Shown: positions 8,170 through 64,000 of the stretch, in pieces | How the letters are laid out: every line of letters begins with the position of its first letter | Numbering within the stretch: the stretch's first letter is position 1 | Assembly: GCA_023150835.1 (NCBI GenBank) | Contig: JAKLKB010000018.1 | Span: 1-64,000 of the forward strand | Origin: Myxococcota bacterium | GTDB taxonomy: Bacteria; Myxococcota_C; UBA6777 | Reading direction: 5' to 3' | DNA: 64,000 nucleotides | Made by a program: the position numbers and the translations under genes | The notes under the pieces: model-generated | Database searches by the model: none | What the model saw: the letters and a program-made list of their open reading frames with translations, nothing else | What the model was told of the DNA's origin: nothing

Positions 8170-8410
8170 CTCGCAACCTCTCAATCGCCTCAAAAAAGCC
8201 TCTCATCGCCTCAAAAACACCCATCCCACAAACATGGACAGACGCTTCAGTCGCCTTTGTTCGCTGCAACCGCCGTGTTTGCTTCTCAAAACCAACCGCC
8301 CAAAAACACTAACCTTTTCGATCTCGACGCGTCAAGCACACGACGCGCTGTCCGATCCTCTATGACTCCTGTCTTCTCCCCCTTGTCTCAGCAGTGTGTT
8401 CTTCCCCTCC

Positions 8411-13797: not shown

Positions 13798-13945
13798 ACA
13801 CGCGTATGCCTCTTTCACTTTTCCCAATGCTACGACAAACGATATGCACACCAAGGAGAAGCTTGCAACATCCAAGAGACCCAACCAACCCGCGATCCTC
13901 TTTTCAACAACCACAACGCTCCAACAAACCAAGGACGAAACCTTC

Positions 13946-43863: not shown

Positions 43864-45183
43864 CTAAAACCGCACAGGAAAGCTCTTCCAACGCGCAACC
43901 ACTTGGCCGCCTCGTACTGCGTCGATCGTCTCAAAGTTCAGCAGCGCATCCCCCTCCATCGGTCGAAAAAACACAAAGTCTCCTTGCTCGATCTCGACCG
44001 CATCAGAGCCGATCAACAGCGACTGGTTCGGCAGTAGGTTGGCGTTTGGCGCACCCGCCGTCAAAGGCTCGACCACAAGGCCCGTTGGAGACGCGATCTC
44101 CCTCGACCAGCCGCCCCCGTAGATGTAAAAAGACCGACCGCGATTGGGATCCCACCAGCGCAACAGCCCCTCAAATGACTCCAGAAAAGCAACCTGATTG
44201 CCCTCAAGCTTTTTTAACACAGGAGCCGCGATCCATACCGCAGGACGGTGCGCTGCGAGCGTGTAAAAATCAAAATGCGCGGGCTGCAAAAAGGCACTTC
44301 CAATGCTGAGATCGCGGATACTCGTGCGTTTCTCCATCCCTTGATACAGCGAATAGGTCTTGCTCCCACCACCATTCAAGGTCAATGGCTTCGCAAACAT
44401 CGACGGATACGCCGATCTTGCCTCGCTCACAAACGCTTCGTATCGCCGCAAGACCTCTTGAAATGCCCGTTGTACCGCAGAACGCTGCGATGGAACAGCA
44501 AATGGCGTGTGCGGGACATGCCCGTCATAGCCCATCAGCCCCGAAAAAACCAGATGTTTTGGATGGCTTGCGATCACGTTCAACGCCTCCTTGAGTGCCT
44601 TCGCATCGGCAAATCCGCCACGCCGAAGCCCCACATCGATCTCCAGATTGATCCGCAACACCAACCCCTCTGCCTTTGCCCACGCAAGATAGCGCTCCAA
44701 CCGCTGCCGCGAATCCACCAGCCATTGTACCGCCCCCAACAACGGCTGCTTTTGCGCAGATCCCATCGAACGCACCGCAAACTGCGCAGCCTCCACCGAC
44801 CAAGGCTTGCCCAGCAGATAATCCATCTGACCCCCAAAATGCCCAAACAAGCGCGGTAAAAAGCGCGCATGAAACACCATCAACCCCTTTGCATCGGTCT
44901 TTTTGCACAGGTAGGACAGCAGCTCAAGACTCGGCAGCGACTTGACCACGATCCGCAGGCGATACGGCTCTCTCACCACATGACGGATCGCCTCGGTGTT
45001 GTGATCCAAACGCCCCAGATCGATCACCAACGCGGGCTGCCCCTCGGCCTGCCCTTTCAGCACTCTGTTCAGCCCCGAAAAAAAAGCGTCGTGCTTTCCC
45101 CCCCCTTTGCTCGGCTTCAACACAAACAACCCCACCACAAGCAACCCAACACCCAGCCCGATCCATACACGCACACGTCTCAT
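43864..45183 (-). CDS. DSD1-like PLP-dependent alanine-racemase-fold protein with N-terminal TM
   Basis: RIVVKSLPS, LEIDVGLRRGG, GLMGYDGH, GGGS. Confidence 0.88.
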   Translation of the reverse strand: MRRVRVWIGLGVGLLVVGLFVLKPSKGGGKHDAFFSGLNRVLKGQAEGQPALVIDLGRLDHNTEAIRHVVREPYRLRIVVKSLPSLELLSYLCKKTDAKGLMVFHARFLPRLFGHFGGQMDYLLGKPWSVEAAQFAVRSMGSAQKQPLLGAVQWLVDSRQRLERYLAWAKAEGLVLRINLEIDVGLRRGGFADAKALKEALNVIASHPKHLVFSGLMGYDGHVPHTPFAVPSQRSAVQRAFQEVLRRYEAFVSEARSAYPSMFAKPLTLNGGGSKTYSLYQGMEKRTSIRDLSIGSAFLQPAHFDFYTLAAHRPAVWIAAPVLKKLEGNQVAFLESFEGLLRWWDPNRGRSFYIYGGGWSREIASPTGLVVEPLTAGAPNANLLPNQSLLIGSDAVEIEQGDFVFFRPMEGDALLNFETIDAVRGGQVVARWKSFPVRF

Positions 45184-45395
45184 TGCCCTCGACCTCCCGA
45201 CCTTTTCAAAAAACTCCGCTCCACCTATACCACACCTCTGTCTTTTCTTACAGATGTCACTTAACACACCAACTTGACCTATCCCCCGCTCTTTGCTACG
45301 TTCAATCCCCTTCTGAAGAAGTTCGCCTCGCGGCATCCATCCCACGCTCCCACCTTTTGCGCCTGATGGACGCCTCCGTACCACAAGGAACCGCA

Positions 45396-45992
45396 ATGTC
45401 CGAAGCCAACAAAGCTCAAAAAAAGAAAGCACAACTCCGCGAAGCCGCCTACCGCTGCTTTCAAAAGTCTGGCTATTACGAAACCACCGTCGATGATATC
45501 TGCCAAAAAGCCCAATGCTCAAAAGGCAGTTTCTATTATCACTACGCCTCCAAACAAGAAGTCTTTATCGATATCCTCCAAGTCTGGGCCCGCGAAGTCA
45601 TCTCCGAGATGCTCAAGTCCTTTGAAGATGCCCTCGCCAACGAAACCCCCATCGAAGCCGTCACCCAAGCCATCCAAAACGAAGTCCGACGCGGTCGCGC
45701 CATCGTCCCGCTCTGGCTCGAATTCACCATCCACGCCCACCGCGACGAACTCGTCCGAAACGCCCTCTCCAAATTCTTCCGACGTACCCGCAACGCCATC
45801 TCCGAGATGCTCGAACCCCTCACCCGCGATCGCTTCTCCGCAGAAGAAAGCGAAGGCATCGCCGCCGGCATCTTCGGTATGTACACCGGCCTGATTATGC
45901 AAGAACTCGCCGACCCCGAAACCGCCGATGCCAGCGAGTCCGTCGCACGCATCATGCGCGTCATGTCCATTCTTCTCGCTCCCATCGCCTGA
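45396..45992 (+). CDS. TetR-family regulator
   Basis: GYYETTVDDIC..SKGSFYYHYASKQE. Confidence 0.93.
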   Translation: MSEANKAQKKKAQLREAAYRCFQKSGYYETTVDDICQKAQCSKGSFYYHYASKQEVFIDILQVWAREVISEMLKSFEDALANETPIEAVTQAIQNEVRRGRAIVPLWLEFTIHAHRDELVRNALSKFFRRTRNAISEMLEPLTRDRFSAEESEGIAAGIFGMYTGLIMQELADPETADASESVARIMRVMSILLAPIA

Positions 45993-46026
45993 TCTCCCTC
46001 CGCCATCCTTGATCCAAATTTTTTTA

Positions 46027-46093
46027 TTGACATCCTTCACGAATTCAAGTACCGCCCTCTTCCATTGATTTTTCTTTAGACCGACCAGTCGGT
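46027..46093 (+). promoter_or_regulatory. fas upstream region: TTGACA and TetR-type palindrome
   Basis: TTGACA at 46027; ACCGAC-CA-GTCGGT at 46080-46093. Confidence 0.55.
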
Positions 46094-46124
46094 TTTTGTT
46101 TGCCCAAAAGAGAAGAGGGATACG

Positions 46125-49100
46125 ATGCGAAGAACAGAAGAGCGCAACAACGGGAAAGCAGCGGTTGTTCAAGCGGCAGAGGAGGGTGCTTCTTTGTCGG
46201 CGTCAGCGAAAGAACAGCTGTGGGGTCTGGAGCGCACGTCGCAAGGGTTCGTGTCGTACGATGGAGAAGGGGGGCAACAAGGCGGCGCGTTGTACACAAG
46301 CGGTCAAGTGACTGCGGTGCGCTCGTTGTTGTCGCGTCTGGTGCTGGGGGAAAACCAAGCGGCGATCTCGTTTGCGGGACAAGGTTTCTATGATCTGGAT
46401 CATCTTGCGGGTTTGATGCGGGGATCGCGGGAAGTACGGGCATTGTTGGAAGCCGCGACAGCACATCTAGAATCACTGGTCCACACACAAGAAGCGCGAT
46501 GGAGCGGGTGTTATGCCGATGGCTTCGATGTGATGGCTTGGTTGCAAGAGCCTTCGACGCGCCCGTCGGCAGCGGTATTACGGGGCGGTTGTTATTCACA
46601 GCCGCTGATCTTGATCCAACAAGTCGCTTTGTATGTCGCGTTGTACGAAGAAGGGATCCGCGAAGCCTTTGCGGTGGGGGCGATCCCCGTGATCTTTGGT
46701 CACTCTCAAGGCTTACAGACGGCGTTGTTGGTGGCGGAAAGCCCAAACGGACAGATCGAGACCGAACGGCTCTTGGCTTATGTAAGCTATGCCTTTTGGC
46801 AGGGTCTGGTGATGGAACAAGGATACACCGTCACGCCCGAACGTTCGGCGGAAGGGGCGTCACCGATGGCGGCGATCTCGGGTCCGTCGCTTGCGGTGTT
46901 GGAACAGGTGTTGGCGCGTTTCAATCGCAGTTTGCCCGAAGCAGCGCAAGTCGATATCTCGTTGTACAACACACGCAATCGCCATGTGGTGAGCAGCCAT
47001 CCTGCGGTGCTTTCGACGCTACGCAAGGCGATGGAGGCCCAAGCCGAGCGCGAGGCTGCCCGAAAAAAAGCCGGGCGATTCGGAGGACAACCGCTACAGT
47101 TTACATGGGAATATCTCGAAGTCAGCGGCCCGTTTCATTCGCGTTATATGCGCGAAGGCTTTGAGCAGATGCAGCGAAAAGTCCGAGATATCGGCTTTGA
47201 TTTTTCAAAAAGCCGCTTCTTTGTGGATGTGTTGTGTGGCCACACAGGGCGCGTGTTGACGCAACAGCCCGATGTATTGGATGAGTTGCTGCACAATCAG
47301 TTTGTGCGCTCGGTACGTTGGTCGCGGATGTTGCGCAGTTTGGAGCCTTACAACGGAGTTTCGGATATCTTGGATCTCGGGCCGGGGGATGGGGTGATGC
47401 GCTTGACGGCTTCGGCCTTGCGTGGAACGGGACGACAAGTCCACACGCTTTACACCCAAGAAGGCCAAGACGCTTTCTTTCTACAAGCTCCGCAGACACC
47501 TCGTCCTGTGGCTTATTGCAGCTTTCTTCCGTCTGTTTCTCCCGATGAGGCAGGGGGATGGCGCGTCGAAAACCGATACACCCGCGCAACGGGCCATGCA
47601 CCCGTGATCTTGCCGGGGATGACCCCCACCACGTCGGATGTCCCGATCGTCGCCGCAGCGGCCAACCAAGGTTTTACCGCCGAGTTGGCGGGCGGCGGTC
47701 AAGTCAACGAACGGATCTTTTGGTTGCGGATGGAAGAGCTTCAAGAGGCCCTTGGACCCGGGCGTGAAGTCGTCTTCAACGCGCTGTATCTCGATCCGTA
47801 TCTGTGGGATCTTCATGTGCGCAAAACGGGCTTGGTGCAAAAAGCACGCAAGGCGGGTTATCCGATCTGTGGTGTGACGATCAGCGCAGGGATGCCCGAA
47901 GTCTCCGAAGCTGTCGCTCTTTTGGATGAGTTTGTGTCGTTGGGGATGTGGCTCAATGCTTTCAAGCCCGGGACGTTGGCGCAGATCCGTCACGTCGTCA
48001 AGATCGCACAAGCCGCACCGCACCATACGATCTTTGTGCATCTCGAAGGCGGCAAGGCAGGCGGGCATCACTCGTGGGAAGATCTCGAACAGCTTTTGTT
48101 GGACGGCTATCACCTCTTGCGCGAACAGCCCAACCTCGTGCTTTGCGTGGGCGGCGGGATCGGAAGCGAGGCCCACGCCAATGCCCTGCTGACAGGCCGA
48201 TGGTCTCTCGCTCACGATCTGCCACAGATGCCCGTCGATGCGGTGCTTTTGGGGACGCTCACGATGGCTTGCAAAGAAGCCACCACCTCCGCACAAGTCA
48301 AACAAGCCCTTGTCGATGCTCCCGGCTGCGCGGGATGGGTCTTTGCAGGCCACGTCGAAGGCCAGACCACTTCGGGAAAAAGCGCACTCAACGCAGATAT
48401 CCACTACATCGACAACGCTGCCTCCCGCTGTGGGCGTTTGTTGGATGAAGTCGCGGGCGATGCGATCGCAGTTCAAGCCCGACGCGATGAGATCATCGCG
48501 GCACTCAACCAAACCGCCAAGCCTTACTTTGGCGATCTCTCGACCATGACGTATCATGCCGTCGCGCAGCGCCTTGTCACGTTGATGGCCCTCGGACGTC
48601 ACGGACGCTACGAAGACGGTCCTTGGCTTGATACGACGCACCGCACACGATTCGCAGACTTTTTGCAGCTTGCAGAGGCTCGATTGTGCGAACAAGAAGA
48701 AGGCCGCTTCGCATGCTTTTTTGGAACCTTCGAAGCGCTTGACCATCCACAGGCTTGTGTCGATCGGCTGCTTGCGCTGTATCCCCACGCAGCCCAGCAG
48801 ATCTTGCATCCTGCGGATGTTCGGCGATTTTTGTATGATATCTGTGGCCGCGCTGGCAAGCCTGTTCCGTTCGTTCCCGTCATCGACGCCGAAGTGCGGC
48901 GTTGGTACAAAGCAGACTCGCTCTGGCAAGCCCACGATGATCGCTACAGCGCCGACCAAGTTCTGATCATCCCCGGCCCTGCGGCCCTTCAAGGACTCCG
49001 TAGCGCAGATCAGCCTGTGGCCTCGATGCTTGGGCGGTTTGTGGACGCACTCCAAGCAGAAGTCCAACAGATGCCCGCGCCTCCCCACGCCGAACGTTCA

Positions 49101-52100
49101 CCGCTGTCTCTCTCCCGATGGCCCGAAGGTTGTACAGGTAGCGTGACGTTGTGCAGCGATCCCCATCCGACCGCCCCGCGCTACGAAGTGGTCCTGACGA
49201 TCCCATCGGCCCTTCCAACAGAACCGACCGAATGGTTTGGATTCCTTCGCGAGGCTTTTACAGGCCCCCTGATCACCGCCATGACCTCGATCCGCCTCTA
49301 CCAACAAGGCGGCTCACAGCCCAATCCCTTGCGCGAGCTGTGCGTGTGTGAAGCAGGCGCACAACTGCGTATGATCATGACCGAAGGACGGCGCATCCAG
49401 TCGCTTACCTATCATCCAAACAACACTGCGGCCCACGAAACCGTCCACCTTTCCTTACACACTGACCAAGCCAACGACGCCCACCTCCATCTCGATATCT
49501 CTCTTGCATCGGCCTTTACAACAGAGCCTGCCCTCTACAGGCTGCCTTTGCGCGTCCAAGACGGTATCTTGCTCGTCGATGCCCGCGAACAAGAACAAAC
49601 CTTGCGCGACTTTTACCAACACGCGCTCTTTGGCCGTCTGTTGGCCCCTGTCGAAGCCTTTGCCCCCACCCACCACACCACCCACGCGGACCCCCAAAAG
49701 CTCCGAGGCTACGCGGTCTCCACAGGCTCTCATGGTGATCCGTCGCACCTGCCGATGAATATGGCCTTTTCTTTGGTCTGGGAGCCTCTCTTCCGCTTGC
49801 TTTCTGCCGAAGGGGTTTGCGAAGGGATCTTGCGACTTGTTCATCTTTCCCATCACGTCGAGATCGACGCTGGTTGGCCGATCCTCCCTCACCAAGCCGT
49901 CGATGTCGAAGCCCAGATCACACGCATCGAAAACACCGACACAGGCCGAAGCATCCACACCCGATGCACCCTCTCACGCAACGGTGCGCGCTGCGCGATC
50001 GTTGAATCGGCCTTTTTTGTGCGTGGCTTTTTTGGCCGAACAACCGACATCTTGCGCACCAAAGAGATCATCGACACCTCACTGATCTTGCGCGATCAAG
50101 GCAGCATCGACTTTTTGCTTGCACACGGATGGCTGCATCGCACCTCCGACACCCCTCTGCACGTCGGCGATATCTTGCAACTGCGTGCGCTCCAAGAAGA
50201 ACACCGCCCCCGAAAAGGTCTTGCGCATTTTGCCGCAACAGGTCAGATCTGGCGTGGTTCCCAACCGATCGCCACGCTCGCGCTCGATCTACGGGCAGCG
50301 CGCAAACTCCATCCTCTGCAAGCCCTTCTCCAAGCCTTCGCCCAAGAACAAGCCACCCCGCGCAAGCCTGTCACGCCCCGCATCCTTGCGCATACCGAGA
50401 CCCAAGCCCCCCAATCCATGCAAACCTTTGCAGAAGTCAGCGGCGATCTCAACCCGATCCATCGCAGCTTGCTGTTTGCTCGGATGGGACGGCTCGATCG
50501 CCCGATCGTGCATGGGATGTGGACCGCTGCCCGCCTGCATAGCTTCTTGGTCGCCTCGGTGGTCGATGGCGAAGAAAGCCGCGTCCTTGATTACAAAGCC
50601 TCCTTCCTTGCGCCGCTTTTGCTTGGTGAACGCTTGCGACTCGAAGCCACCCGCACAGCCGTCCAAGAGGGCGTCTTGTTCGTCGAGCTTACAGCTTCCG
50701 CCATGCGCGACGCCCAAGCCATCGCCGTTGTTCGCGCCGAAGCCAAAGTCAAGATGCCCCGCAGCGTCTATCTGTTCCCCGGCCAAGGCATCCAACAAAA
50801 AGGCATGGGCATGGAGGCTTACGCCCGCTCCAAAGCGGCGCGCAACGTCTGGGATCAAGCGGATGCTTATACACGCGAACATCTCGGATTCTCGATCTTG
50901 GAGATCGTGCGCAACAACCCCAAAGAGCTTCTCGTCCAAGGCCGCACCCACGTCCATCCCCAAGGCGTCTTGCATCTCACGCAGTTCACACAAGTCAGCA
51001 TGGCTGTGATGGCGCAAGCACAAGTCGCAGAGCTCCGCGAGTCCGGGCTTTTGGACCCTGATGCGATCTTATGCGGTCACAGCGTCGGCGAATACAACGC
51101 CATCGGTGTGACAGGTATCCTCCCGCTGACAGATGTCGTCGAGATCGTCTATCATCGGGGACTTGTGATGCACGCACTCGTCCCACGCGATGAATCGGGC
51201 GAAAGCGGCTACCGCATGGGCGTTCTTCGCCCTCATTACGCAGGAATGGATCACGCCCAAGCCGAAGCCCTTGTCGAGCAAGTCGCCAAACAAACCGGCC
51301 AGTTCTTGCAGATCGTCAACTACAACGTCCGAGGCCGTCAGTACTCCGTCACAGGGCAGATCGGCGCGCTTCGGCTTCTTGAGCAGCTTCTCGATCAGCG
51401 CGCAACACAGAAAAAGCCCCCCTACATCGAAGTCCCGGGCATCGATGTTCCCTTCCATTCGTCCGTCTTGTTCAACGGTGTCGACGACTTCCGCAAAACT
51501 TTGGAGGCGCGCTTCCCTCAAGATATCGATGAACAACGACTCTTGGGTCGTTATATCCCCAACCTTGTCCCCAAACTCTTCTCTCTCGACAAGCCATACA
51601 TCGAAGAAGTTCAACAGACCACTCAGTCGCCGATCCTAGAAAAAGTCCTTGCAGACTTCGCCGACTACGCCGCCACCCCCAAGCGCCTCGCACGTATCCT
51701 GCTCATTGAGCTGTTGGCATGGCAGTTTGCAAGCCCTGTCCGTTGGATCGAGACCCAAGAGCTGCTCTTCCAACGCCGTTCGCTCGGTGGGATCGAGATC
51801 CAGCGCGCTATCGAGATCGGCGTGGGCTACCAGCCCACCTTGGCAAACATGGCGCGTTATTCCCACCAACTGCTCGGCCCTTCAGCTCCTGATATCGAGA
51901 TCCTCAATATCGAAGCGGAAGCGGATCGCGTCTTCTTGCGCGACCAAGACACCCTGCCACCTCAAGCCCAAGATACCGCTGCTCCGGCCTCGATCCAGCC
52001 TCTCTCCGCTCAAAAGCCACAGCCCTCACAACAGGCCACCTCCTCCGCTTCGCTCCAGCAACCATCACAACAGGCCATCCCATCGACAAACGCCGCCTCC

Positions 52101-55100
52101 CCCGTTTCGGTCGGCGCACCGCCACCGCCCGATCAGCCGCTTTCTGTGGCCGAAGGCGTGACTTTTGTCCTCGCAAGCCAAGCCCGTATCCGCCCCGATC
52201 AGCTTTCCATGCAAGAGACCCTCGATGATCTCTTTGACGGCGTTTCATCGCGCCGCAACCAAGTCCTGCTCGACCTTGGCGCAGAGTTTCAGATGGGACC
52301 GATCGACGGGGCCCATGAAAAACCTTTGCGCGAACTGATCGCCGAGATCACCCGCCGCTGCCCTTCCTACAAAGCCCCCGGAAAATATATGCGCGCCACC
52401 CAAGATGATTCGATCAAACGAGTCTTCGGACGCGCTGGACTGACGCGCAAAGAAGTGGAAAGCCACTTTGAACAACAATTCGGCCTTGGTTCGGGCTTGC
52501 GCGAGAGCGCGTTGTGTCTGCTCGCCTTGGAAAGCCGCGAAGGAGCCTCCGCTCGCGGCGGCAGCATGGGCTTGTTGCCCCAAGCCCTCCCATCCGACCG
52601 AAACACCGCCAAGACCTTCTTAGACGAAGCCGCCCTACGCATCGGACAGATCAAAGGTCTGACGATCAGCCGACAAGGCGCACACAGCACAGGGGGCGGA
52701 GCCTCCGTCGATGCCGCTGTCGTCCAAGAGCTTGAGTCCAAGATCCTCGGACCCAAGGGGATCTTGATGCAACAAGCCCGTGAGATCGCCGAACGTCTGG
52801 GGCATCCGATCGAGGCCGCAGCAAGCGGGCTTCCTGCGCAACACAATGAACAAGCCGAAAAGCTGGCTCTCTACGAAGCAGAACACGACAGCGAGTTTGT
52901 CGAATGGCTTCAACCGCGCTTTGATGCCAAAAAGCACGTCGCGCTGACTTCTTCGTGGGCGTCTGCTCGACGCGATGTGGCTCGATTGTTCTTTGATCTG
53001 CGAAACAACCGCATTGAGGCTTCCGAAGCCTTGGCACAAGTCGCCCGACTGGCCGCCTTCCACGAGGATATCACCCTCACACAAACCGCTTCTTGGTACG
53101 CAAAACTCGCCGAAGAGCAAGGCGACCTCCGTCTTGCAGGTTGGCTCCACCAGATCGCAGCGGGTGATGCGCCCCATACTCCGGCGTTTCAGCCGACGCG
53201 CCCCGCGCTCTCTTTGCAACAAGACGGCTCTTGGAGATACGCCGAGGCCGTATGCGATCAAGCCGATGCCCTCGACCGTTTTGTCGATGCCTTGTGGCCC
53301 AAAGATCGCCCTCCCCTTCTTCAAATCGGCGAACAAGGCGAATGGAACATCACTTTTTCCAAGCTCCTGTCCGAACACACCAAGCGGCCCTTTGATCTGC
53401 GCAACACGACCGCTCTGGTGACGGGTGCAAGCCCGGGATCGATCGCCTTGGCCTGTGTGCGCTTTCTTTTGCGCGGTGGAGCCCGTGTCATCGTCACCAC
53501 CAGCACTTACAACAGCGATCGTGTACGCGAATACCGCGATCTCTTCGAGACTTCTGCCGTCCCGGGTGCAGAGCTCCATGTCGTCCCCTTCAACCAAGCC
53601 TCTTTCCAAGATGTCGAGTCCCTGATCCACTGGCTGTTTTCCTCTGTCACCGAACAAGACGGAGCCAAAGTCCGCGTCGTGAAGCGCCCTTTTGCACCCG
53701 ATATCGTGCTGCCTTTCGCCGCCATCAAAGATCTCGCCACGCTCGACAGCCTCCAAGCCCGCTCCAATGCCGTGATGCGTACGATGCTGCTCAGCGTAGA
53801 GCGCCTTGTGACGGGCATCGCCACCCATTACAAGCGTCACGGTCTCCCCGCGATGCCTTGCCATATCCTGCTGCCGCTTTCGCCAAATCACGGGAGCTTC
53901 GGTGGTGACGGCGTGTACGCCGAAACCAAAGCTGCACTCGAAGTCCTCCTGACCAAGTGGGAAAGTGAACGCGAAGCGTGGGGCAAAGCCACCACCTTGT
54001 GCGCGGCCCGCATCGGATGGGTCCGTGGGACGGGCTTGATGGATGCCAACAATCTTGTGGCTCACCACCTCGAACAGCGCACAGGCATACGCACTTTTTC
54101 GAGCGATGAGATGGGCTGGTTGTTGACCGCTCTGTGTACCCATGCGGCCAGAAAACAAGCCCTCCACCAGCCGCTTGAGGCCGATCTAACGGGCGGTTTC
54201 CAGCGGATCAAAGCCCTTCGTCAGACTGTTTCGACGATCCGCACCGAACTCGAACACCAAGCCGCTCGCGTCAAGCAACGCCTGACCCTCGAAAACGCCG
54301 AAGCCACCTTGCTTGGCGCGCCCACCGATGCGCCTTTGCTTGTCGATGCGCTTCCTCATTGGCCTGCGACCTTACACCCTCGATTGACGCCTGCCACAGC
54401 CAAAAAGCCCGTCCATTGGCCCAAACGCGGCCTTTCCTTGCGCGAGATGGTGGTGATCGTTGGCATGGGCGAGATCGGCCCTTGCGGAAGCGCCCGTACC
54501 CGCTACGAGATGGAGCTCGGTCCATCCCTTTCTCCTGCTGCTGTGCTTGAGTTGGCTTGGATCACGGGCTTCGTCACCTACGAAGAAAACGGCAAAGCGG
54601 GGGTTTGGAAAGATCGCCAAACCAACACCGTGATCGCAGAACACGAGATCGCCGCTCGTTATCGTGAAAGCGTCCGCAAACATCTCGGGCTGCGCTGGAT
54701 CGAGCCTGAGACCGTAGGCATCGACCCCAACGCTCTTTCTATGTACACCTCTGTTTTTCTGGAAAAAGATTTTACTTTTTCGGTCAGCTCCGAAGAAGAA
54801 GCCCGTACTTTCTTTGCGACGGCCCCCGAAAAAACCCGTGTTCACTTTGATGCCCAAGACGGACAATGGCGCATCACACGCCTCGCTGGAACCGAAGTTA
54901 AAGTCCCCCGCCAAGTCCGCCTCCAACGTCAAGTCATGGGCCAGATCCCCAAAGGCTTCGACTTTGCGCGATTCGGTCTCTCCAACGATATGATCGAACG
55001 CATCGATCGCGTCGCTCTCTTCAACCTGATCGCCACCGTCGATGCCTTCTTGTCTGCTGGCATCGAACCCGAAGAACTCTTGCGATGGCTCCATCCTGCC

Positions 55101-56354
55101 CGCGTCGCAAACACCCAAGGCTCGGGCATCGGTGGGATGCGCAGCTTGGCCCGTCTCTACCGCGATCACGTCCTCGATATCGAGCGCCAGCCTGATATCC
55201 TCCAAGAGACCTTGATCAACGTCGCAGCGGCCTATGTGGTCCAAAGCTACGTCGGAAGCTACGGGCCGATGTCTCACCCTGTCGCCGCCTGCGCAACCGC
55301 TGCCGTCTCTCTCGAAGAAGCCACCGACAAGATCTTGGCAGGAAAGGCCGACTTTGTAGTCGCGGGTGGGTACGATGACGTCGGGCGCGAAAGCCTTGTG
55401 GGCTTCGGTGATATGAACGCCACCGCAAACACCGATGAGATGGTCGCGATGGGGCTTGAACCCGCCCAGATGTCCCGCCCCAACGACACGCGGCGACGCG
55501 GCTTTGTCGAGGCCCAAGGCGGCGGAACCTTCTTGCTCGCTCGCGCCGATATCGCCCTACAGATGGGTCTCCCCGTGTACGGTGTGGTCGGATACTGCGG
55601 CTCTTTTGGTGACGGTATCCACAAATCCATCCCCGCCCCCGGCATGGGCGCACTCGCTTGTGCCATCGGAGGCCAACAATCCCCGCTCGCTCGTTCACTC
55701 CAACACTTCGGCCTGACCGCTGATGATATCGCCGTCGTGTACAAACACGACACTTCCACCGCTGCCAACGACCCCAACGAAAACGAACTCCATCACCGCA
55801 TCCAACGAGCGCTCGGACGCAGCGAAGGAAACCCGCTCTTTGCCGTCTCTCAAAAAAGTCTGACAGGTCACGCCAAAGGCGGAGCCGCTGCGTGGCAGAT
55901 CATCGGGCTTTGCCAGACTCTTCTCCAAGGCCGCATCGCAGGAAACCCCAATCTCGACAACGTCGATCCGATGATGCGTTCTTTTTCTCATCTCGCTTTC
56001 TCAAACAAAACCCTTGACGTAGGTGAGACGCTGCCGCTGCGTGCAGGGATGCTGACCAGCCTCGGTTTCGGCCACGTCAGCGGTATCGCTCTTTTGCTTC
56101 ACCCCGATGCCTTCTTGGCCCAACTCTCCGAAGAACAAGCCACCGCTTACCACTCCCGCTGTCAGCAGCGCCACCACCAGACCACCCAACGCTGGGCCTC
56201 CGTCTTCATGGGACAAACACCCTTGTTCTCTCGCCGAAACCTCCGCCGCTTTGAAGCCCAAGACGGCTCTCCCGAACAAGCCGCCCAAGAAGCCGCCATG
56301 CTCCTGAACCCCCACGCTCGCCTTGATACCTCACGCGGCTTCTATTCTTTGTAA
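46125..56354 (+). CDS. fas: Type I fatty acid synthase, actinobacterial/fungal type (AT-ER-DH-MPT-ACP-KR-KS)
   Basis: GHSQG; EGGKAGGHHS; SGDLNPIH; FPGQG/GHSVGEY; GVSSRRNQ; TGASPGSI/FGGDGVYAETK; AACATA, KHDTST, GHAKG. Confidence 0.96.
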   Translation: MRRTEERNNGKAAVVQAAEEGASLSASAKEQLWGLERTSQGFVSYDGEGGQQGGALYTSGQVTAVRSLLSRLVLGENQAAISFAGQGFYDLDHLAGLMRGSREVRALLEAATAHLESLVHTQEARWSGCYADGFDVMAWLQEPSTRPSAAVLRGGCYSQPLILIQQVALYVALYEEGIREAFAVGAIPVIFGHSQGLQTALLVAESPNGQIETERLLAYVSYAFWQGLVMEQGYTVTPERSAEGASPMAAISGPSLAVLEQVLARFNRSLPEAAQVDISLYNTRNRHVVSSHPAVLSTLRKAMEAQAEREAARKKAGRFGGQPLQFTWEYLEVSGPFHSRYMREGFEQMQRKVRDIGFDFSKSRFFVDVLCGHTGRVLTQQPDVLDELLHNQFVRSVRWSRMLRSLEPYNGVSDILDLGPGDGVMRLTASALRGTGRQVHTLYTQEGQDAFFLQAPQTPRPVAYCSFLPSVSPDEAGGWRVENRYTRATGHAPVILPGMTPTTSDVPIVAAAANQGFTAELAGGGQVNERIFWLRMEELQEALGPGREVVFNALYLDPYLWDLHVRKTGLVQKARKAGYPICGVTISAGMPEVSEAVALLDEFVSLGMWLNAFKPGTLAQIRHVVKIAQAAPHHTIFVHLEGGKAGGHHSWEDLEQLLLDGYHLLREQPNLVLCVGGGIGSEAHANALLTGRWSLAHDLPQMPVDAVLLGTLTMACKEATTSAQVKQALVDAPGCAGWVFAGHVEGQTTSGKSALNADIHYIDNAASRCGRLLDEVAGDAIAVQARRDEIIAALNQTAKPYFGDLSTMTYHAVAQRLVTLMALGRHGRYEDGPWLDTTHRTRFADFLQLAEARLCEQEEGRFACFFGTFEALDHPQACVDRLLALYPHAAQQILHPADVRRFLYDICGRAGKPVPFVPVIDAEVRRWYKADSLWQAHDDRYSADQVLIIPGPAALQGLRSADQPVASMLGRFVDALQAEVQQMPAPPHAERSPLSLSRWPEGCTGSVTLCSDPHPTAPRYEVVLTIPSALPTEPTEWFGFLREAFTGPLITAMTSIRLYQQGGSQPNPLRELCVCEAGAQLRMIMTEGRRIQSLTYHPNNTAAHETVHLSLHTDQANDAHLHLDISLASAFTTEPALYRLPLRVQDGILLVDAREQEQTLRDFYQHALFGRLLAPVEAFAPTHHTTHADPQKLRGYAVSTGSHGDPSHLPMNMAFSLVWEPLFRLLSAEGVCEGILRLVHLSHHVEIDAGWPILPHQAVDVEAQITRIENTDTGRSIHTRCTLSRNGARCAIVESAFFVRGFFGRTTDILRTKEIIDTSLILRDQGSIDFLLAHGWLHRTSDTPLHVGDILQLRALQEEHRPRKGLAHFAATGQIWRGSQPIATLALDLRAARKLHPLQALLQAFAQEQATPRKPVTPRILAHTETQAPQSMQTFAEVSGDLNPIHRSLLFARMGRLDRPIVHGMWTAARLHSFLVASVVDGEESRVLDYKASFLAPLLLGERLRLEATRTAVQEGVLFVELTASAMRDAQAIAVVRAEAKVKMPRSVYLFPGQGIQQKGMGMEAYARSKAARNVWDQADAYTREHLGFSILEIVRNNPKELLVQGRTHVHPQGVLHLTQFTQVSMAVMAQAQVAELRESGLLDPDAILCGHSVGEYNAIGVTGILPLTDVVEIVYHRGLVMHALVPRDESGESGYRMGVLRPHYAGMDHAQAEALVEQVAKQTGQFLQIVNYNVRGRQYSVTGQIGALRLLEQLLDQRATQKKPPYIEVPGIDVPFHSSVLFNGVDDFRKTLEARFPQDIDEQRLLGRYIPNLVPKLFSLDKPYIEEVQQTTQSPILEKVLADFADYAATPKRLARILLIELLAWQFASPVRWIETQELLFQRRSLGGIEIQRAIEIGVGYQPTLANMARYSHQLLGPSAPDIEILNIEAEADRVFLRDQDTLPPQAQDTAAPASIQPLSAQKPQPSQQATSSASLQQPSQQAIPSTNAASPVSVGAPPPPDQPLSVAEGVTFVLASQARIRPDQLSMQETLDDLFDGVSSRRNQVLLDLGAEFQMGPIDGAHEKPLRELIAEITRRCPSYKAPGKYMRATQDDSIKRVFGRAGLTRKEVESHFEQQFGLGSGLRESALCLLALESREGASARGGSMGLLPQALPSDRNTAKTFLDEAALRIGQIKGLTISRQGAHSTGGGASVDAAVVQELESKILGPKGILMQQAREIAERLGHPIEAAASGLPAQHNEQAEKLALYEAEHDSEFVEWLQPRFDAKKHVALTSSWASARRDVARLFFDLRNNRIEASEALAQVARLAAFHEDITLTQTASWYAKLAEEQGDLRLAGWLHQIAAGDAPHTPAFQPTRPALSLQQDGSWRYAEAVCDQADALDRFVDALWPKDRPPLLQIGEQGEWNITFSKLLSEHTKRPFDLRNTTALVTGASPGSIALACVRFLLRGGARVIVTTSTYNSDRVREYRDLFETSAVPGAELHVVPFNQASFQDVESLIHWLFSSVTEQDGAKVRVVKRPFAPDIVLPFAAIKDLATLDSLQARSNAVMRTMLLSVERLVTGIATHYKRHGLPAMPCHILLPLSPNHGSFGGDGVYAETKAALEVLLTKWESEREAWGKATTLCAARIGWVRGTGLMDANNLVAHHLEQRTGIRTFSSDEMGWLLTALCTHAARKQALHQPLEADLTGGFQRIKALRQTVSTIRTELEHQAARVKQRLTLENAEATLLGAPTDAPLLVDALPHWPATLHPRLTPATAKKPVHWPKRGLSLREMVVIVGMGEIGPCGSARTRYEMELGPSLSPAAVLELAWITGFVTYEENGKAGVWKDRQTNTVIAEHEIAARYRESVRKHLGLRWIEPETVGIDPNALSMYTSVFLEKDFTFSVSSEEEARTFFATAPEKTRVHFDAQDGQWRITRLAGTEVKVPRQVRLQRQVMGQIPKGFDFARFGLSNDMIERIDRVALFNLIATVDAFLSAGIEPEELLRWLHPARVANTQGSGIGGMRSLARLYRDHVLDIERQPDILQETLINVAAAYVVQSYVGSYGPMSHPVAACATAAVSLEEATDKILAGKADFVVAGGYDDVGRESLVGFGDMNATANTDEMVAMGLEPAQMSRPNDTRRRGFVEAQGGGTFLLARADIALQMGLPVYGVVGYCGSFGDGIHKSIPAPGMGALACAIGGQQSPLARSLQHFGLTADDIAVVYKHDTSTAANDPNENELHHRIQRALGRSEGNPLFAVSQKSLTGHAKGGAAAWQIIGLCQTLLQGRIAGNPNLDNVDPMMRSFSHLAFSNKTLDVGETLPLRAGMLTSLGFGHVSGIALLLHPDAFLAQLSEEQATAYHSRCQQRHHQTTQRWASVFMGQTPLFSRRNLRRFEAQDGSPEQAAQEAAMLLNPHARLDTSRGFYSL

Positions 56355-56373
56355 AAATGTCGGATCTATCTTA

Positions 56374-56826
56374 ATGAGTTTTCAACTGTCTTTTCATCCT
56401 CAAGGGCGTGTCCTTGGTGTCGGTTTCGATGTCGTTTCGGTTGCGGCTTTCTCTCTACAGCTTCAAGATCCAGCCTCTTGTTTTGTCGAAGAAGTCTTTA
56501 CCTTAGCAGAACGCCGCATCGCTCGCTCACGCGCAGGGCAACAGCCCGCACGCCACTTCGCGGCCCGCTTTGCTGCCAAAGAAGCCCTCATCAAAGCGTG
56601 GTCTTCGGCCCTTTTCGGCCAACCTCCCCCCTTGCCGCATCTCTCCTTACGAGAGATCGAAGTGATCCACGATGCTTATTCTCGCCCTGCCCTACGTTTT
56701 CACGGTCAAGTCTCGGATGCCATTCAAGCACTTTTCCCCTATACAACCCACCTCTCTCTCTCCCACGATGGCGACACCGCCGCTGCCATCGTCTTGATCG
56801 AACAGCTCACCGCTGCTTCGCGTTAG
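56374..56826 (+). CDS. acpS: Holo-ACP synthase (PPTase)
   Basis: GVGFDVV, FTLAE, AARFAAKEALIKAWS, LSLSHDGD. Confidence 0.95.
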   Translation: MSFQLSFHPQGRVLGVGFDVVSVAAFSLQLQDPASCFVEEVFTLAERRIARSRAGQQPARHFAARFAAKEALIKAWSSALFGQPPPLPHLSLREIEVIHDAYSRPALRFHGQVSDAIQALFPYTTHLSLSHDGDTAAAIVLIEQLTAASR

Positions 56827-56892
56827 GCTTCCGCCAGATCGCTCGGAACAGATCACTGCGGCTTCGCGCTAGGCTTCCGCCAGATCGCTCGG
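56807..56892. repeat. 46-bp diverged duplication at the junction of convergent genes
   Basis: GCTTCGCG(T/C)TAGGCTTCCGCCAGATCGCTCGG twice. Confidence 0.9.
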
Positions 56893-57734
56893 TGGGTCTC
56901 CACATACATCCGCAGCGTCCGCCCTCGCCGCCCCAACAACGCCTCCATCGTCGGATCGACCCGCTCTGCCTGCCCAAAACGCAGCCCGACGTGCAAGATC
57001 GTTTGGACGATACACTGCCCCCAAGGCAGCCCACGCCGCCGAAGATGCCACACATACCCCACCACCGACGCAGCCCGATAACGGATGCTCCGCCCCAAAA
57101 CATCGCTCAAGATCTTCGCGACCTCATCAAACCCGATGGCTTCTGGCCCTGTAAGCGTATAAGCTTGATTCGCGTGCTTTTCTGGCGCAACAAACGCCTC
57201 GGCGGCCACCTCCGCCACATCATACAGATCCACAAAAGCTGCACGACCTTTGCCCGCAGGCACATACAAACGATCCGCCTCGCAGATATCCTGCAAGTAG
57301 GCGTCTTGTAGGTTTTGCGCGAAAAATCCGGGGCGCAGCAACGTGTACGGAGCGACCGATGCTTTGAGGTGCATCTCAACTTTATGATGCGGAATGATCT
57401 TGTTTTCTCCCGCTCCTGCAACCGATAAAAAGACGATATGCTCAGCCTTTTTTTCTCGTGCGATATCCACAAAAGGATTCAGCGTTTTTTCCACATCTGC
57501 GATCGGCGGCGGACGCAACAAAAACACGCCCGAACATCCCTCCAAAGCAGCCGACCACGTCGCAGCGTCCCGAAAATCAAACCGCACACTCTTGACTTCT
57601 CCGTTCCAGTACTCTTCTGCCGATGCCACCGATGAAACAGCAGCCCGCACGTCGATACCTCTTACACGCAACGCACGAACCACCTCACGACCCACATTCC
57701 CCATCGCTCCTGTCACCAAGATCCGCTTCGTCAT
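56853..57734 (-). CDS. NmrA-family NAD(P)-binding protein
   Basis: ILVTGAMGNVG, LRPGFFAQN, YTLTGPEA. Confidence 0.92.
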   Translation of the reverse strand: MTKRILVTGAMGNVGREVVRALRVRGIDVRAAVSSVASAEEYWNGEVKSVRFDFRDAATWSAALEGCSGVFLLRPPPIADVEKTLNPFVDIAREKKAEHIVFLSVAGAGENKIIPHHKVEMHLKASVAPYTLLRPGFFAQNLQDAYLQDICEADRLYVPAGKGRAAFVDLYDVAEVAAEAFVAPEKHANQAYTLTGPEAIGFDEVAKILSDVLGRSIRYRAASVVGYVWHLRRRGLPWGQCIVQTILHVGLRFGQAERVDPTMEALLGRRGRTLRMYVETHRAIWRKPSAKPQ

Positions 57735-57776
57735 CAAAAGATCTCCCAAACAAAATCGCCTCAAGCCGACGTCACC

Positions 57777-57900
57777 CAAAAACCCGCGTTCGCGCCCGTT
57801 GCGAGCGACTGCGTCGTTGGTTTGAAACACGATGCTCTGTTCGCCAATACGGGGTCAAGGGGTTGCGACCCCTTGCGGGGTTTGGGGCCGCGCCCCAATT
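57777..57900 (+). mobile_element. Family-A repeat (right end duplicated at 57940-57990)
   Basis: Family-A core. Confidence 0.78.
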
Positions 57901-59704: not shown

Positions 59705-61387
59705 TTATTCGTCAAGATCTACGTCTTTTTCTTCTTTCTTCTCTGGTTTTTTCTCTTCTCTTTTTTTCTCTTTTGCGGTTTCTTTGCAAAGACAGCGTCC
59801 CTGCTCACCTTTTGGACCCATCGGTCCCTTGTCACCTTTCAACCCTTTCGGACCCATCGGTCCCTTGTCACCTTTCGGACCCATCGGTCCCTTGTCACCT
59901 TTCGGACCCATCGGTCCCTTATCACCTTTCGGACCCATCGGCCCCTTATCACCTTTCGGACCCTGTTCGCCTCTCAGTCCTTTCGGTCCCATCGGTCCTT
60001 GCGCGCCTTGTTCACCCTGTTGGCCTCGCTGACCGACCGGACCTTGCTCACCTTGTTCTCCTTTTGTCCCCATCGGACCTTGCCGCCCCATTCGGCCCTG
60101 CTCACCTTTCGGACCTTGCTCACCTTTTGGCCCCTGTTCACCTCTCGGGCCTTGCTCACCTTTCGGTCCCATCGGACCTTGCGGGCCTTGCAGCCCAACG
60201 GAGCCTTGCTCACCTTTTGGTCCAACAGAGCCGTTCTCGCCTTTTGGACCTCGCGTTCCCATCGGTCCGACCGCTCCCGTAGCGCCTCGCTCGCCTTTCG
60301 GACCTTGTGGTCCTTGCAACCCCATCGGCCCTCGCGTTCCTGCCGCTCCAGAAACACCCTGCTCGCCTTTCGGGCCTTGCGGCCCAACGGGGCCTTGCTC
60401 GCCTTTTGGACCTTGCGCTCCTTGCGGTCCCATCGGTCCTTTCTCACCTTTCGGGCCTTGCTCGCCTTTCGGCCCCTGCGGTCCTTGCGGACCTTGCGGC
60501 CCAACGGGGCCTTGCTCACCTTTCGGTCCTTGTGGGCCGATCTTTCCAGCGATACCCTGCTCGCCTTTTGGCCCCTGTGGGCCGATCTTTCCAGCGATAC
60601 CCTGCTCACCTTTTGGACCTTGCGGGCCGATCTTTCCAGCGATACCCTGCTCACCTTTTGGACCTTGCGGCCCCTGCGGACCTTGTAATCCTTGTGGACC
60701 CTGCGGTCCTTGCGGACCTTGCAGACCTTGCGAACCTCTTGGCAGAAGAACGTGTTGTATTTGCGAGCCGCAGCGAAAACGAATGACTGTACCGCGTGCC
60801 TCTTGTGAAACGCCGTCGATTTGACAGGGCGTGCCTTCGTTTCCTTTTTCTCCTTGCAAGACCATGACTTGCGCCAACGTTTTTTGCTGGCTGCCAAAGA
60901 ATCCCACCAAAACAAACAGCCCTGCACGCAATGTTTGCGGCAGATGGATCTCGCGTTTCATCGAAGTTCCTCCTTGAAGAATTTGAAAACCTTGCTCGCG
61001 TCCGTAATGTTGTTTGGGTTCACGCTCCGAGACAAGAGAAACACCCGTCAGCACGTCAAGATGTTCGCCATGTATCGTCCACCGCGAACGAAACCGCCGC
61101 GAAGCCATCTTTGCAAAAGACGGCTTTGCTTGCTCAGAAGAAAAAACGATGGGGGACAACGTACCCTCACCTTCGATAGAGAGGACTTTTGCGTTGTGAA
61201 AATGACGAATCATTTCTGATGCGCAATGTCCTTTTTGACATACCAAGCCTGACAGACAATCTGTATCACGCTTGCAAGGTCGCCCAAGCCCACCGTCTTG
61301 GCAACCCGTCACAAACAGCGACAGAAAAAACCACAGCCACACGCTGCGCTGTAATCCAATCCAAACACCTCGAACCCTCGCTCTCAT
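59705..61387 (-). CDS. Collagen-like lipoprotein
   Basis: Lipobox VTGC; small Cys domain; more than 100 uninterrupted G-X-Y triplets. Confidence 0.92.
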
Positions 61388-61443
61388 CAACCCCTCCTGT
61401 ACCATGCGCTCGCCATCCGCCAAAGCAGATCAACTCTCTTGAT

Positions 61444-63252: not shown

Positions 63253-64000
63253 TTATGGCTGTTTGCAAGCGCCCAACGACTGAACCGAAACGCCCAATCG
63301 TGCGGCTTCGCAATCGTTACTGTACGTTTTACCGTCACAACCGCACACAGGCTTGTATTCTCCACGACAACCTGTGGGCTTGGGCATACAAACCCCGGGA
63401 TGATCGGCGGCTCCGCACATCGCGGTCAAGCTGTACTGACAATACTGATCGTCAGGGCAAGAGTTATCGACGCCGGGAGGAACAAGCCCACCGCATGACT
63501 TCCCAGTACAAGGCATCTTTGAGCAAAGGGCGCTTCCACCTCGGCAGGTGCAAGTATTACAGCCGTCTCCTGCGGGGAAAGACTCACCTTCTTTGTAACG
63601 TTGGCCGTTGTATACGCAAACACCCGGCTGGCTTTTGCATTCGCCCTCGTATTGTACAGAAAGGCCCGCCATCGCGGCATCACAAGCATTGCTATAAGTC
63701 TTTCCATCGCAGCCACACACAGGCTGATGGATCAGGTTGCAGCTTTTGGGCTTATCAACACAAACACCCGTTCCATCGTCAAATCCGCAGCCTTTTTCGA
63801 TCTTGCAATACTTCCCATCGGCACAGCGAAGTCCTGCTTCCCCTCCACAAAACGATTCTGCGCAAGCTTCATCCGTACAAGCCACTTTTCCTTTGAAGCA
63901 CGAACACTTGCTTCCTTTATCACAGAACGATTCTCCGTCTTTGTAGATCTTACCGTTGAACTCGCACTGTTGAGGTGTTGCACAAGCGCCGATCTTGGCT
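63253..64000 (-). CDS. Kazal plus VWC/pacifastin-like Cys-rich protein, 5' end outside window
   Basis: PVCGCDGKTYSN.C x2; CVYNG..Y..GESF..DGCNTCTC; frame open to 64000. Confidence 0.9.
   Translation of the reverse strand, partial: AKIGACATPQQCEFNGKIYKDGESFCDKGSKCSCFKGKVACTDEACAESFCGGEAGLRCADGKYCKIEKGCGFDDGTGVCVDKPKSCNLIHQPVCGCDGKTYSNACDAAMAGLSVQYEGECKSQPGVCVYNGQRYKEGESFPAGDGCNTCTCRGGSALCSKMPCTGKSCGGLVPPGVDNSCPDDQYCQYSLTAMCGAADHPGVCMPKPTGCRGEYKPVCGCDGKTYSNDCEAARLGVSVQSLGACKQP

Follow-up and report, generated by a model that had tools for sequence, protein, structure and literature searches.

The DNA analyzed here is a stretch of 64,000 nucleotides (the window) at the start of contig C139 (77 kb; GenBank JAKLKB010000018.1) in a metagenome-assembled genome (MAG) titled Myxococcota bacterium. 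Reading of its open reading frames (ORFs) places three consecutive genes on the + strand, tetR (45396–45992), fas (46125–56354) and acpS (56374–56826), encoding a TetR-family regulator, a single-chain type I fatty acid synthase (FAS I) and a holo-acyl carrier protein (ACP) synthase. We consider it probable that these genes form a native and intact unit, that the synthase works in much the same way as the corynebacterial and mycobacterial enzymes, and that it belongs to a Myxococcota-type clade rather than being a recent gift from an actinobacterium. The features of the unit, with residue numbers referring to the fas product, are as follows.

45396–45992, + strand: tetR-family regulator, 198 aa, first gene of the unit (Pfam TetR_N, TetR_C_6)
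46078–46097, no strand assigned: imperfect palindrome AGACCGAC-CA-GTCGGTTT (with ACCGAC-CA-GTCGGT inside it), candidate TetR operator, 28 nt before the fas ATG
46125–56354, + strand: fas, single-chain type I fatty acid synthase (ORF; closest solved structures are the M. smegmatis and M. tuberculosis FAS, at 2148 and 2127 bits)
46395–47096, + strand: AT (acetyl/starter transferase), residues 91–324, GHSQG with Ser194 (PF16073, PF22690; invariant columns)
48027–49031, + strand: FAS-I-specific helical part of the enoyl reductase (ER) region (DUF1729), residues 635–969 (PF08354, 322.5 bits)
49077–50729, + strand: dehydratase (DH) region, residues 985–1535, with MaoC hot-dog at 1422–1516 and His1446 (model and segment table)
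50766–51359, + strand: MPT (malonyl/palmitoyl transferase) core, residues 1548–1745, GHSVGEY with Ser1653 (PF00698, FabD-like match, invariants)
52128–52532, + strand: ACP, residues 2002–2136, Ser2041 (PF18325; invariant G2039, S2041, R2044, N2045 and Q2046)
Residues 2237–2387 of the fas protein: FAS_I_H (PF18314, 44.2 bits, over cut-off)
53385–54224, + strand: ketoreductase (KR), about residues 2421–2700, Y2598/K2602 (SDR match at 2421–2504, alignment to the KR-KS part of mycobacterial and fungal alpha chains, invariants)
54855–55955, + strand: ketosynthase (KS), residues 2911–3277, Cys3056, His3208 and His3249 (PF00109, PF02801; invariants)
56374–56826, + strand: acpS, holo-ACP synthase, 150 aa (NCBIfam NF000831, 142.5 bits against a cut-off of 124)

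All seven catalytic domains are on one chain encoded by a single ORF, and Pfam and NCBIfam matches place them in the order AT-ER-DH-MPT-ACP-KR-KS, with the FMN-type ER barrel preceding the DUF1729 part, whose coordinates are identical in a genome-wide profile search and in the Pfam scan of fas. The FAS-I-specific non-catalytic scaffold is also present (PF08354 and PF18314 are both over cut-off), and the protein aligns end to end with mycobacterial FAS. The motifs GHSQG, NPIH (H1446), GHSVGEY, GVSSRRNQ (S2041) and Y2598-x3-K2602, as well as C3056, H3208 and H3249, are invariant in an alignment of 19 sequences that includes relatives at 42–75% identity; we take S194, H1446, S1653, S2041, Y2598/K2602, C3056, H3208 and H3249 to be the catalytic residues. 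By architecture, scaffold and active-site residues the gene therefore encodes an intact microbial type I FAS of the kind found in fungi and in corynebacteria, mycobacteria and nocardiae (CMN). The original prediction, made from the sequence alone, had proposed intact catalytic motifs in this domain order and a product longer than mycobacterial FAS, and both are borne out, the fas product being 3409 aa and the solved mycobacterial chains 3069–3092 aa.

The host MAG (G000) is 7.56 Mb in 239 contigs, 93% complete, 2% contaminated, and 55.2% GC. There is no 16S rRNA gene in the assembly, and so no rRNA taxonomy is available. A genome taxonomy tool assigns the host to a phylum-level group of only six genomes in one family and three genera. 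The titles of its relatives are 'MAG: Myxococcota bacterium' for a 95%-identical congener and 'MAG: Myxococcales bacterium' for a 74%-identical protein. BamA is over cut-off in five of five genomes of the group, with two paralogues, which argues for an outer membrane in the host cell. The host thus belongs to a Myxococcota-affiliated lineage of uncertain rank and is certainly not actinobacterial. As to the suggestion of a probable myxobacterium, BamA and the Myxococcota-titled kin set the host apart from Actinomycetota, and the tool's phylum-level group of six genomes includes no other family.

The unit is conserved in this group. Orthologous tetR and fas genes are present in four further genomes (G001–G004), the FAS orthologues being 95% (G001), 76% (G002), 57% (G004) and 55–63% (G003) identical to the window protein; acpS follows fas in G001, G002 and G004, and the G003 contig ends within fas. 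In G001 the flanks of the locus are collinear over 16 kb, in G002 the locus is on a 542-kb contig, and near-identical DNA is present in sludge and wastewater metagenomes from nine studies. The recurrence in G001–G004, including the 542-kb contig, shows that the locus is neither a chimera nor an assembly artefact.

FAS I is common in this lineage and widespread beyond it. PF08354 is over cut-off in all but one of the group's six genomes (the exception, G005, being 86% complete), in 46 of 401 Myxococcota genomes (about one in nine) that evenly sample the phylum centred on the genome of locus L018, and in only C. glutamicum among 14 control genomes. A protein search yielded 1104 FAS relatives, a representative library searched with the KR-KS part 490 clusters (E ≤ 1e-30), and a species-level genome collection 528 confirmed relatives. 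Among the 75 best loci of these 528, 41 have actinobacterial titles and 34 have others, of which 24 are Myxococcota titles, six are implausible (Enterobacteriaceae, Klebsiella, Proteobacteria) and four are without assignment. We note that four loci titled Enterobacteriaceae, Enterobacterales or Klebsiella pneumoniae (L013, L022, L024 and L025) have a Myxococcota-type FAS I together with the same TetR, and these titles look wrong. FAS I is thus a recurrent trait of both the host lineage and Myxococcota.

A 2020 paper (PMC6972935) gives bacterial FAS I as found in corynebacteria, mycobacteria and nocardiae. We found no literature on FAS I in Myxococcota or related MAGs in a search whose coverage lacks most subscription journals. 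As far as could be searched, the Myxococcota-type tetR-fas-acpS operon is undescribed, though databases hold hundreds of copies. The possibility raised at the outset, that FAS I is already documented as common in this lineage, therefore holds as to its being common, but no paper was found that says so.

The regulator gene distinguishes the Myxococcota-type loci from those of Actinomycetota. Where a FAS I locus has enough upstream flank, a same-strand gene for a TetR orthologue (phmmer E-values from 1e-41 to 1e-128) precedes fas in 19 of 27 non-actinobacterial cases and in none of 39 actinobacterial ones. There is a resemblance to FasR of Mycobacterium and Corynebacterium, in that a TetR-family protein is tied to the fas gene. 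However, the window TetR scores only 43.5 bits against the NCBIfam FasR equivalog (cut-off 330), and the match covers just the N-terminal, DNA-binding domain; it is therefore not a FasR orthologue, and it further differs in being the first gene of the unit and in its association with a conserved palindrome. The palindrome was read by eye and then by pattern; an automated inverted-repeat search (6-nt seed) of 45900–46200 reported none. The regulator gene and a palindrome had both been predicted upstream of fas, and both are there.

The palindrome core ACCGACNNGTCGGT is present with two or fewer mismatches between tetR and fas in eight of the 19 TetR-holding loci, where we estimate a chance expectation of about 0.01 per locus. 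The L018 copy is not palindromic, L024 has two copies, and L012 has a spacerless variant. The 14-mer ACCGACNNGTCGGT is identical in L010, L013 and L023, the FAS proteins of which are only about 47–52% identical to the window FAS, and this fits protein recognition better than a mere hairpin. The conservation points to a putative TetR operator.

One observation weighs against the operator, namely that the palindrome scores in a consensus scan as a terminator-like hairpin with a T run. Because the site matches the terminator pattern, we retain as an alternative that it is an intrinsic terminator of tetR and that fas has a promoter of its own that is regulated otherwise. On the + strand, 86 nt past the tetR stop, the segment 46078–46095 scored as a hairpin of 7 pairs with TTTTTGTTT directly after it, and in L076 and L017 both arms co-vary (ACTGAC..GTCAGT) such that the hairpin is retained. 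Against a terminator are the identity of the 14-mer in L010, L013 and L023 across diverged FAS genes, the two copies in L024, and the frequency of terminator-like matches in the region (24 found against 13.7 expected). We regard a terminator as somewhat unlikely and a TetR operator as the better reading of the palindrome.

At the other end of the unit, the acpS ATG at 56374 is 19 nt past the fas TAA (56352–56354), and the LIKAWSS segment is present. The spacing and the IKAWS segment are as originally predicted, and the AcpS equivalog score agrees. Among loci with enough downstream flank, a same-strand acpS is downstream of fas in 24 of 25 non-actinobacterial and 36 of 38 actinobacterial cases, and a separate adjoining gene for an AcpS-type phosphopantetheinyl transferase (PPTase) is common to the Myxococcota-type and actinobacterial FAS I clades. 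A 46-nt unit is present in tandem duplicate (91% identity) at window positions 56800–56891, spanning the acpS stop and the 3' end of an NmrA-like gene; the second copy has a TAG in the same register.

The genes downstream of acpS differ between relatives. In G004 (contig C37) a single-chain acetyl-CoA carboxylase (ACC) of about 1.9 kaa directly follows acpS and is joined to the fas operon. In the window the ACC gene is not adjacent to acpS, and the NmrA-like gene (56853–57830, - strand) converges on acpS instead. The host ACC is a eukaryote-type protein of 1963 aa encoded elsewhere (contig C199:43782–49673, - strand; locus L088), with the domain order biotin carboxylase, BCCP, ACC_central, carboxyltransferase, and it is 59.7% identical to the G004 ACC. 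A single-chain ACC is encoded in five of five genomes of the group and in none of the 14 controls.

FAS I is likely the main fatty acid synthase of this lineage and may be the sole one. In searches of G000–G004 (MAGs 64–94% complete) with curated cut-offs for type II (FAS II) components, no FabF was over cut-off (the best in G000 having 316 bits against 494), nor was any FabH, AcpP or FabZ (best in G000 63, 35 and 68 bits, respectively), and PlsX gave no match at all. The same genomes have no LpxA over cut-off and no LpxC match at all, and with BamA in five of five these may be outer-membrane bacteria without lipid A. The discrete KS genes of G000 are in polyketide synthases and in two specialised, FAS-II-like clusters. 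Together with the marker pattern, this is consistent with production of acyl-CoA by FAS I in a cell that lacks lipid A.

Several observations weigh against so large a role for FAS I. The two FAS-II-like clusters of G000, having their own ACP, AT, KS, KR and DH, could carry bulk synthesis. The first (C99:14600–27500; L009) encodes a BioF/serine-palmitoyltransferase-like protein, AT, FabZ-like protein, KS, KR, HMG-CoA synthase, two crotonases, two FabL-like SDRs and an ACP, a beta-branching cassette that is possibly for an amino-lipid. The second (C160:2044–12018; L087) encodes a 982-aa KS protein, an ACP, a GcvT-like aminomethyltransferase, an SDR, an AT, a FabA-like dehydratase and an FAD-linked oxidase. 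Of the sampled Myxococcota genomes, 22 of the 46 with FAS I and 11 of the 20 without it have an AcpP over cut-off; for FabF the corresponding counts are 18 and 8, and PlsX is found in only one of five FAS-I-positive genomes that have AcpP. Since Myxococcota that lack FAS I or carry AcpP fail the cut-offs about as often, a score below cut-off does not mean that a gene is absent; the AcpP, FabF and PlsX cut-offs do not discriminate, and we did not accept them as evidence that FAS II has been lost. Gaps in the MAGs do not account for everything, since a closed 9.29-Mb chromosome with FAS I (L019/G368) shows neither AcpP (E ≤ 1e-12) nor FabF (E ≤ 1e-125). The proposed check for FAS II genes thus finds none of FabF, FabH, FabZ and AcpP over cut-off in G000–G004, but the same test fails in many Myxococcota that have no FAS I.

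These findings leave room for a different role, in which FAS I is a specialised synthase for a particular lipid or secondary product and housekeeping acids are made by a divergent type II system missed by the curated models. There are parallels in fungal HexA/HexB and Ustilago Fas2, and in mycobacterial FAS I, which feeds elongation systems. The C99 and C160 clusters with their own ACPs would fit this, as would the retention of FabF and AcpP over cut-off in 18–22 of 46 FAS-I-positive Myxococcota, such that both systems can coexist; among FAS-I-negative Myxococcota 9 of 20 are without AcpP and 12 of 20 without FabF over cut-off, and unrecognized systems or gaps are thus common. The top Pfam match of the first fas domain is moreover the aflatoxin 'SAT' starter-unit model. 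However, tetR-fas-acpS is kept in five of the six genomes of the lineage, the ACC gene joined to the unit in G004 is what would be expected for bulk synthesis, the beta-branching or amino-acid-condensing enzymes of the two clusters are typical of dedicated products, and G000 has no FabH-like starter enzyme above 63 bits. We consider a specialised role improbable and favor FAS I as the main synthase.

The window FAS is not part of the actinobacterial clade. In a FastTree phylogeny of 50 full-length proteins, 19 actinobacterial rows form one side of a branch with support of 100 and the window FAS is outside it; four rows of its own lineage form a clade (support 100) that is nested with MAGs titled Myxococcales, Deltaproteobacteria and Bradymonadia (support 99). 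The actinobacterial clan without the window FAS, together with this nesting, excludes a recent actinobacterial origin. For rooting, ten eukaryote-type FAS were added from the representative search (the named ones are Entomophthora, Ustilago, Phytophthora, Thecamonas and Anaeromyces), and 35 rows of our choice from the 57 aligned were analyzed over 1253 columns (every second column of those at least 97% filled). IQ-TREE with LG+F+G4 and with PMSF LG+C20+F+G4 agree in placing the eukaryotic clan, which has support of 100, beside two Myxococcota-type subclades. In both trees the actinobacterial clan is elsewhere, next to the L018/L019/P0070 subclade (SH-aLRT 86–96), and the window FAS is outside it. 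A split between 21 Myxococcota-type rows and the seven actinobacterial plus seven eukaryote-type rows is rejected under the first model (dlnL 83.4, p-AU 0.0019) and under PMSF (dlnL 85.8, p-AU 8e-5); the constrained search was time-limited, with the likelihood unchanged between iterations 30 and 90. Rejection of the corresponding split is weaker when the longest Myxococcota-type subclade, which is titled Polyangiales, is left out (dlnL 40.7, p-AU 0.019). A tree of the KS domain (39 rows, 376 columns, four FabF-like outgroups) separates the root, the eukaryotes and two Myxococcota-type subclades from Actinomycetota and the other Myxococcota-type rows (support 99.9/99).

Whatever the root, these topologies suggest that at least one of the actinobacterial and eukaryotic FAS groups branches from within Myxococcota-type diversity, and with either outgroup the actinobacterial enzymes appear to nest inside it. 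Some features of the trees count against this interpretation. Group labels are the submitters' MAG titles, six of which are clearly wrong (Enterobacteriaceae, Klebsiella), the position of Patulibacter shifts between analyses, only 35–57 rows represent the 490 clusters (E ≤ 1e-30), and outgroup branches in the rooted trees are long. Because of the long outgroup branches and the thin sampling we hold the rooting at moderate confidence.

One other protein is of note here. P0214, from outside the window, is a 5652-aa protein encoded on a 100-kb contig of a Deltaproteobacteria-titled MAG, and has an N-terminal extension of about 1840 aa ahead of its FAS part. The FAS part shares 36.7% identity with Entomophthora FAS, and the protein falls with the eukaryotic clan. 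Either the contig is eukaryotic and was misplaced in a bacterial bin, or a bacterium encodes a FAS of eukaryote type.

The original prediction had offered horizontal acquisition as one of two readings; acquisition of an actinobacterial gene does not fit the trees, the window FAS being outside the actinobacterial clan and Actinomycetota being nested within the Myxococcota-type rows when rooted. A phylogeny of KS and ER had been suggested as the check; full-length and KS trees with both actinobacterial and eukaryotic FAS were run, and the result is against an actinobacterial origin. Composition does depart somewhat from that of the genome, which could be held against a native gene: fas has 58.7% GC, whereas the genome averages 55.2% and its 10-kb windows reach 57.0% at the 95th percentile, and 6% of random windows reach its tetranucleotide distance from the genome profile. 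The oddity is mild and is expected for one long conserved gene. A recent import from Actinomycetota, or an actinobacterial contig misbinned into the MAG to give a chimera, would account for the somewhat raised GC and for the closest solved relatives by sequence being mycobacterial, but is scarcely credible given that the nearest proteins are orthologues in the same genus or family, one of them on the 542-kb contig, that the flanks are collinear with G001 and near-identical DNA recurs in metagenomes of nine studies, that the closest actinobacterial proteins are about 40–56% identical and often aligned over part of their length, and that the clade-specific TetR was not found in any of the 39 actinobacterial loci. 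The doubt that the contig might be actinobacterial or chimeric is settled by the tree position, the G001 collinearity and the G002 contig: it is neither.

The better explanation is that fas has been inherited within the small lineage of the host. The actinobacterial enzymes look like a trimmed offshoot of the Myxococcota-type clade, and gene movement in the reverse direction is more likely than acquisition from Actinomycetota. A bolder proposal is possible and is put forward tentatively. It holds that among microbial type I FAS the Myxococcota-type enzymes are the older form and retain scaffold pieces seen otherwise only in eukaryotic FAS, that the compact actinobacterial FAS I is a trimmed descendant obtained by transfer, and that in the host lineage, which has an outer membrane, FAS I and a single-chain ACC but neither a recognizable type II system nor lipid A genes, FAS I is the only fatty acid supply, in a eukaryote-style, CoA-based arrangement.

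Differences in length are consistent with the actinobacterial enzymes being the shorter form. Median FAS lengths are 3030 aa for actinobacterial, 3325 aa for Myxococcota-type, 3394 aa for own-lineage and 4071 aa for eukaryote-type rows (10 rows). In a segment table from the 57-row alignment, 347 residues of the window FAS (P0001) are in segments occupied by less than 25% of the actinobacterial rows. These are, in residues of P0001:

22–65
359–380
994–1043
1084–1134
1308–1413
1958–1972
2349–2415
2717–2731
2754–2763

The N-terminal segment, the piece of linker before the ACP and 2754–2763 are peculiar to the lineage of the host, and the other segments are occupied in 50–99% of Myxococcota-type rows (70–99% for most segments) and 58–99% of eukaryotic rows. 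An AlphaFold model of the DH region (residues 985–1535) has a pLDDT of 88.9 and a pTM of 0.86. Foldseek comparisons with fungal FAS beta chains give TMq values of 0.76–0.80 (rmsd ~4 Å) and those with mycobacterial FAS 0.53–0.56 (rmsd 7–9 Å), a gap that the lower resolution of the mycobacterial models may explain in part. As modeled, the DH region is a better fit to fungal structures than to mycobacterial ones.

The window enzyme therefore has a mycobacterial-like sequence and, in places, a fungal-like build. It shares with the CMN-type enzymes (M. tuberculosis and M. smegmatis FAS, PDB 6gjc, 4v8v and 4v8l; Corynebacterium FasA and FasB) a single chain, an identical domain order and a separate AcpS gene directly downstream, and these are its top sequence matches among solved structures (2127–2148 bits over nearly the full length). 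It differs from them in being about 320 aa longer, with the extras at the N-terminus, in AT, in the DH region (~140 aa) and before KR (67 aa), in its place outside the actinobacterial clan and in a host with an outer membrane (BamA), in the adjacent TetR and palindrome of its clade, which are not found in any of the 39 actinobacterial loci, and in the poor fit of its DH model to mycobacterial structures (TMq 0.53–0.56). With the fungal and other eukaryotic enzymes (yeast Fas1/Fas2, PDB 2uv8, and the single-chain forms of Entomophthora, Ustilago, Phytophthora and Thecamonas) it has in common the domain order, occupancy of most of the segments that are missing in Actinomycetota, and a DH model that matches fungal beta chains (TMq 0.76–0.80). 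However, it has no fused C-terminal PPT domain, acpS being a separate gene, it is much shorter than the eukaryotic single-chain forms (median 4071 aa, 10 rows), its sequence scores are lower (746 bits for the alpha and 617 bits for the beta chain), and the eukaryotic rows form a clan of their own. The shared segments and the predicted fungal-like DH fold lend support to the expectation that the locus bears on how fungal FAS arose.

From homology a scheme can be drawn for how the unit would function. AcpS would put phosphopantetheine on Ser2041 of the internal ACP. AT would load acetyl-CoA and MPT malonyl-CoA, with MPT finally returning the finished chain to CoA, and the elongation cycle would be run by KS, KR, DH and the FMN-type ER within an oligomeric barrel. 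Malonyl-CoA would be supplied by the eukaryote-type single-chain ACC, whose gene is on another contig here and adjoins acpS in G004. TetR probably represses fas through the upstream palindrome and may be released by acyl-CoA. Metatranscriptome contigs at ≥99% identity (three runs from one sludge sample) tile 46.3–56.8 kb across fas and acpS, with 24 of 30 bins covered in each of two runs; there are none on the flanking 44000–45400 and 57076–57542 or on 45868–46334, and such gaps by themselves prove nothing. As assembled contigs of one sample, these give a weak hint of transcription.

Elsewhere in the window there are genes of other kinds. Three - strand segments (5506–8193, 59705–61423 and 63253–63885) encode Stig1-type cysteine-rich repeats (310 bits), collagen triple-helix repeats and a Kazal domain. 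The region 11131–15457 (+ strand) encodes an 888-aa protein with a DO-GTPase2 domain, beside large ORFs without a Pfam match. The GC content dips to 0.445 at 12001–14000, the AT-richest part of the window, and the DO-GTPase2 region may be an acquired island.

What is new here is a regulator-bearing FAS I operon of Myxococcota type with fungal-like scaffold pieces that is not a member of the CMN clade. FAS I is a regular feature of a Gram-negative-type lineage, where a dedicated regulator accompanies it and, in relatives, a eukaryote-type carboxylase as well. Should the rooting be right, the mycobacterial enzyme that is a drug target descends from the Myxococcota-type clade. Members of this clade are natural intermediates that link the minimal barrel of bacteria to the heavily scaffolded barrel of fungi, so that structure determination could test the long-discussed origin of the fungal scaffold. 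A further question is how the envelope of an outer-membrane bacterium would be built from acyl-CoA, without lipid A and perhaps without acyl-ACP.

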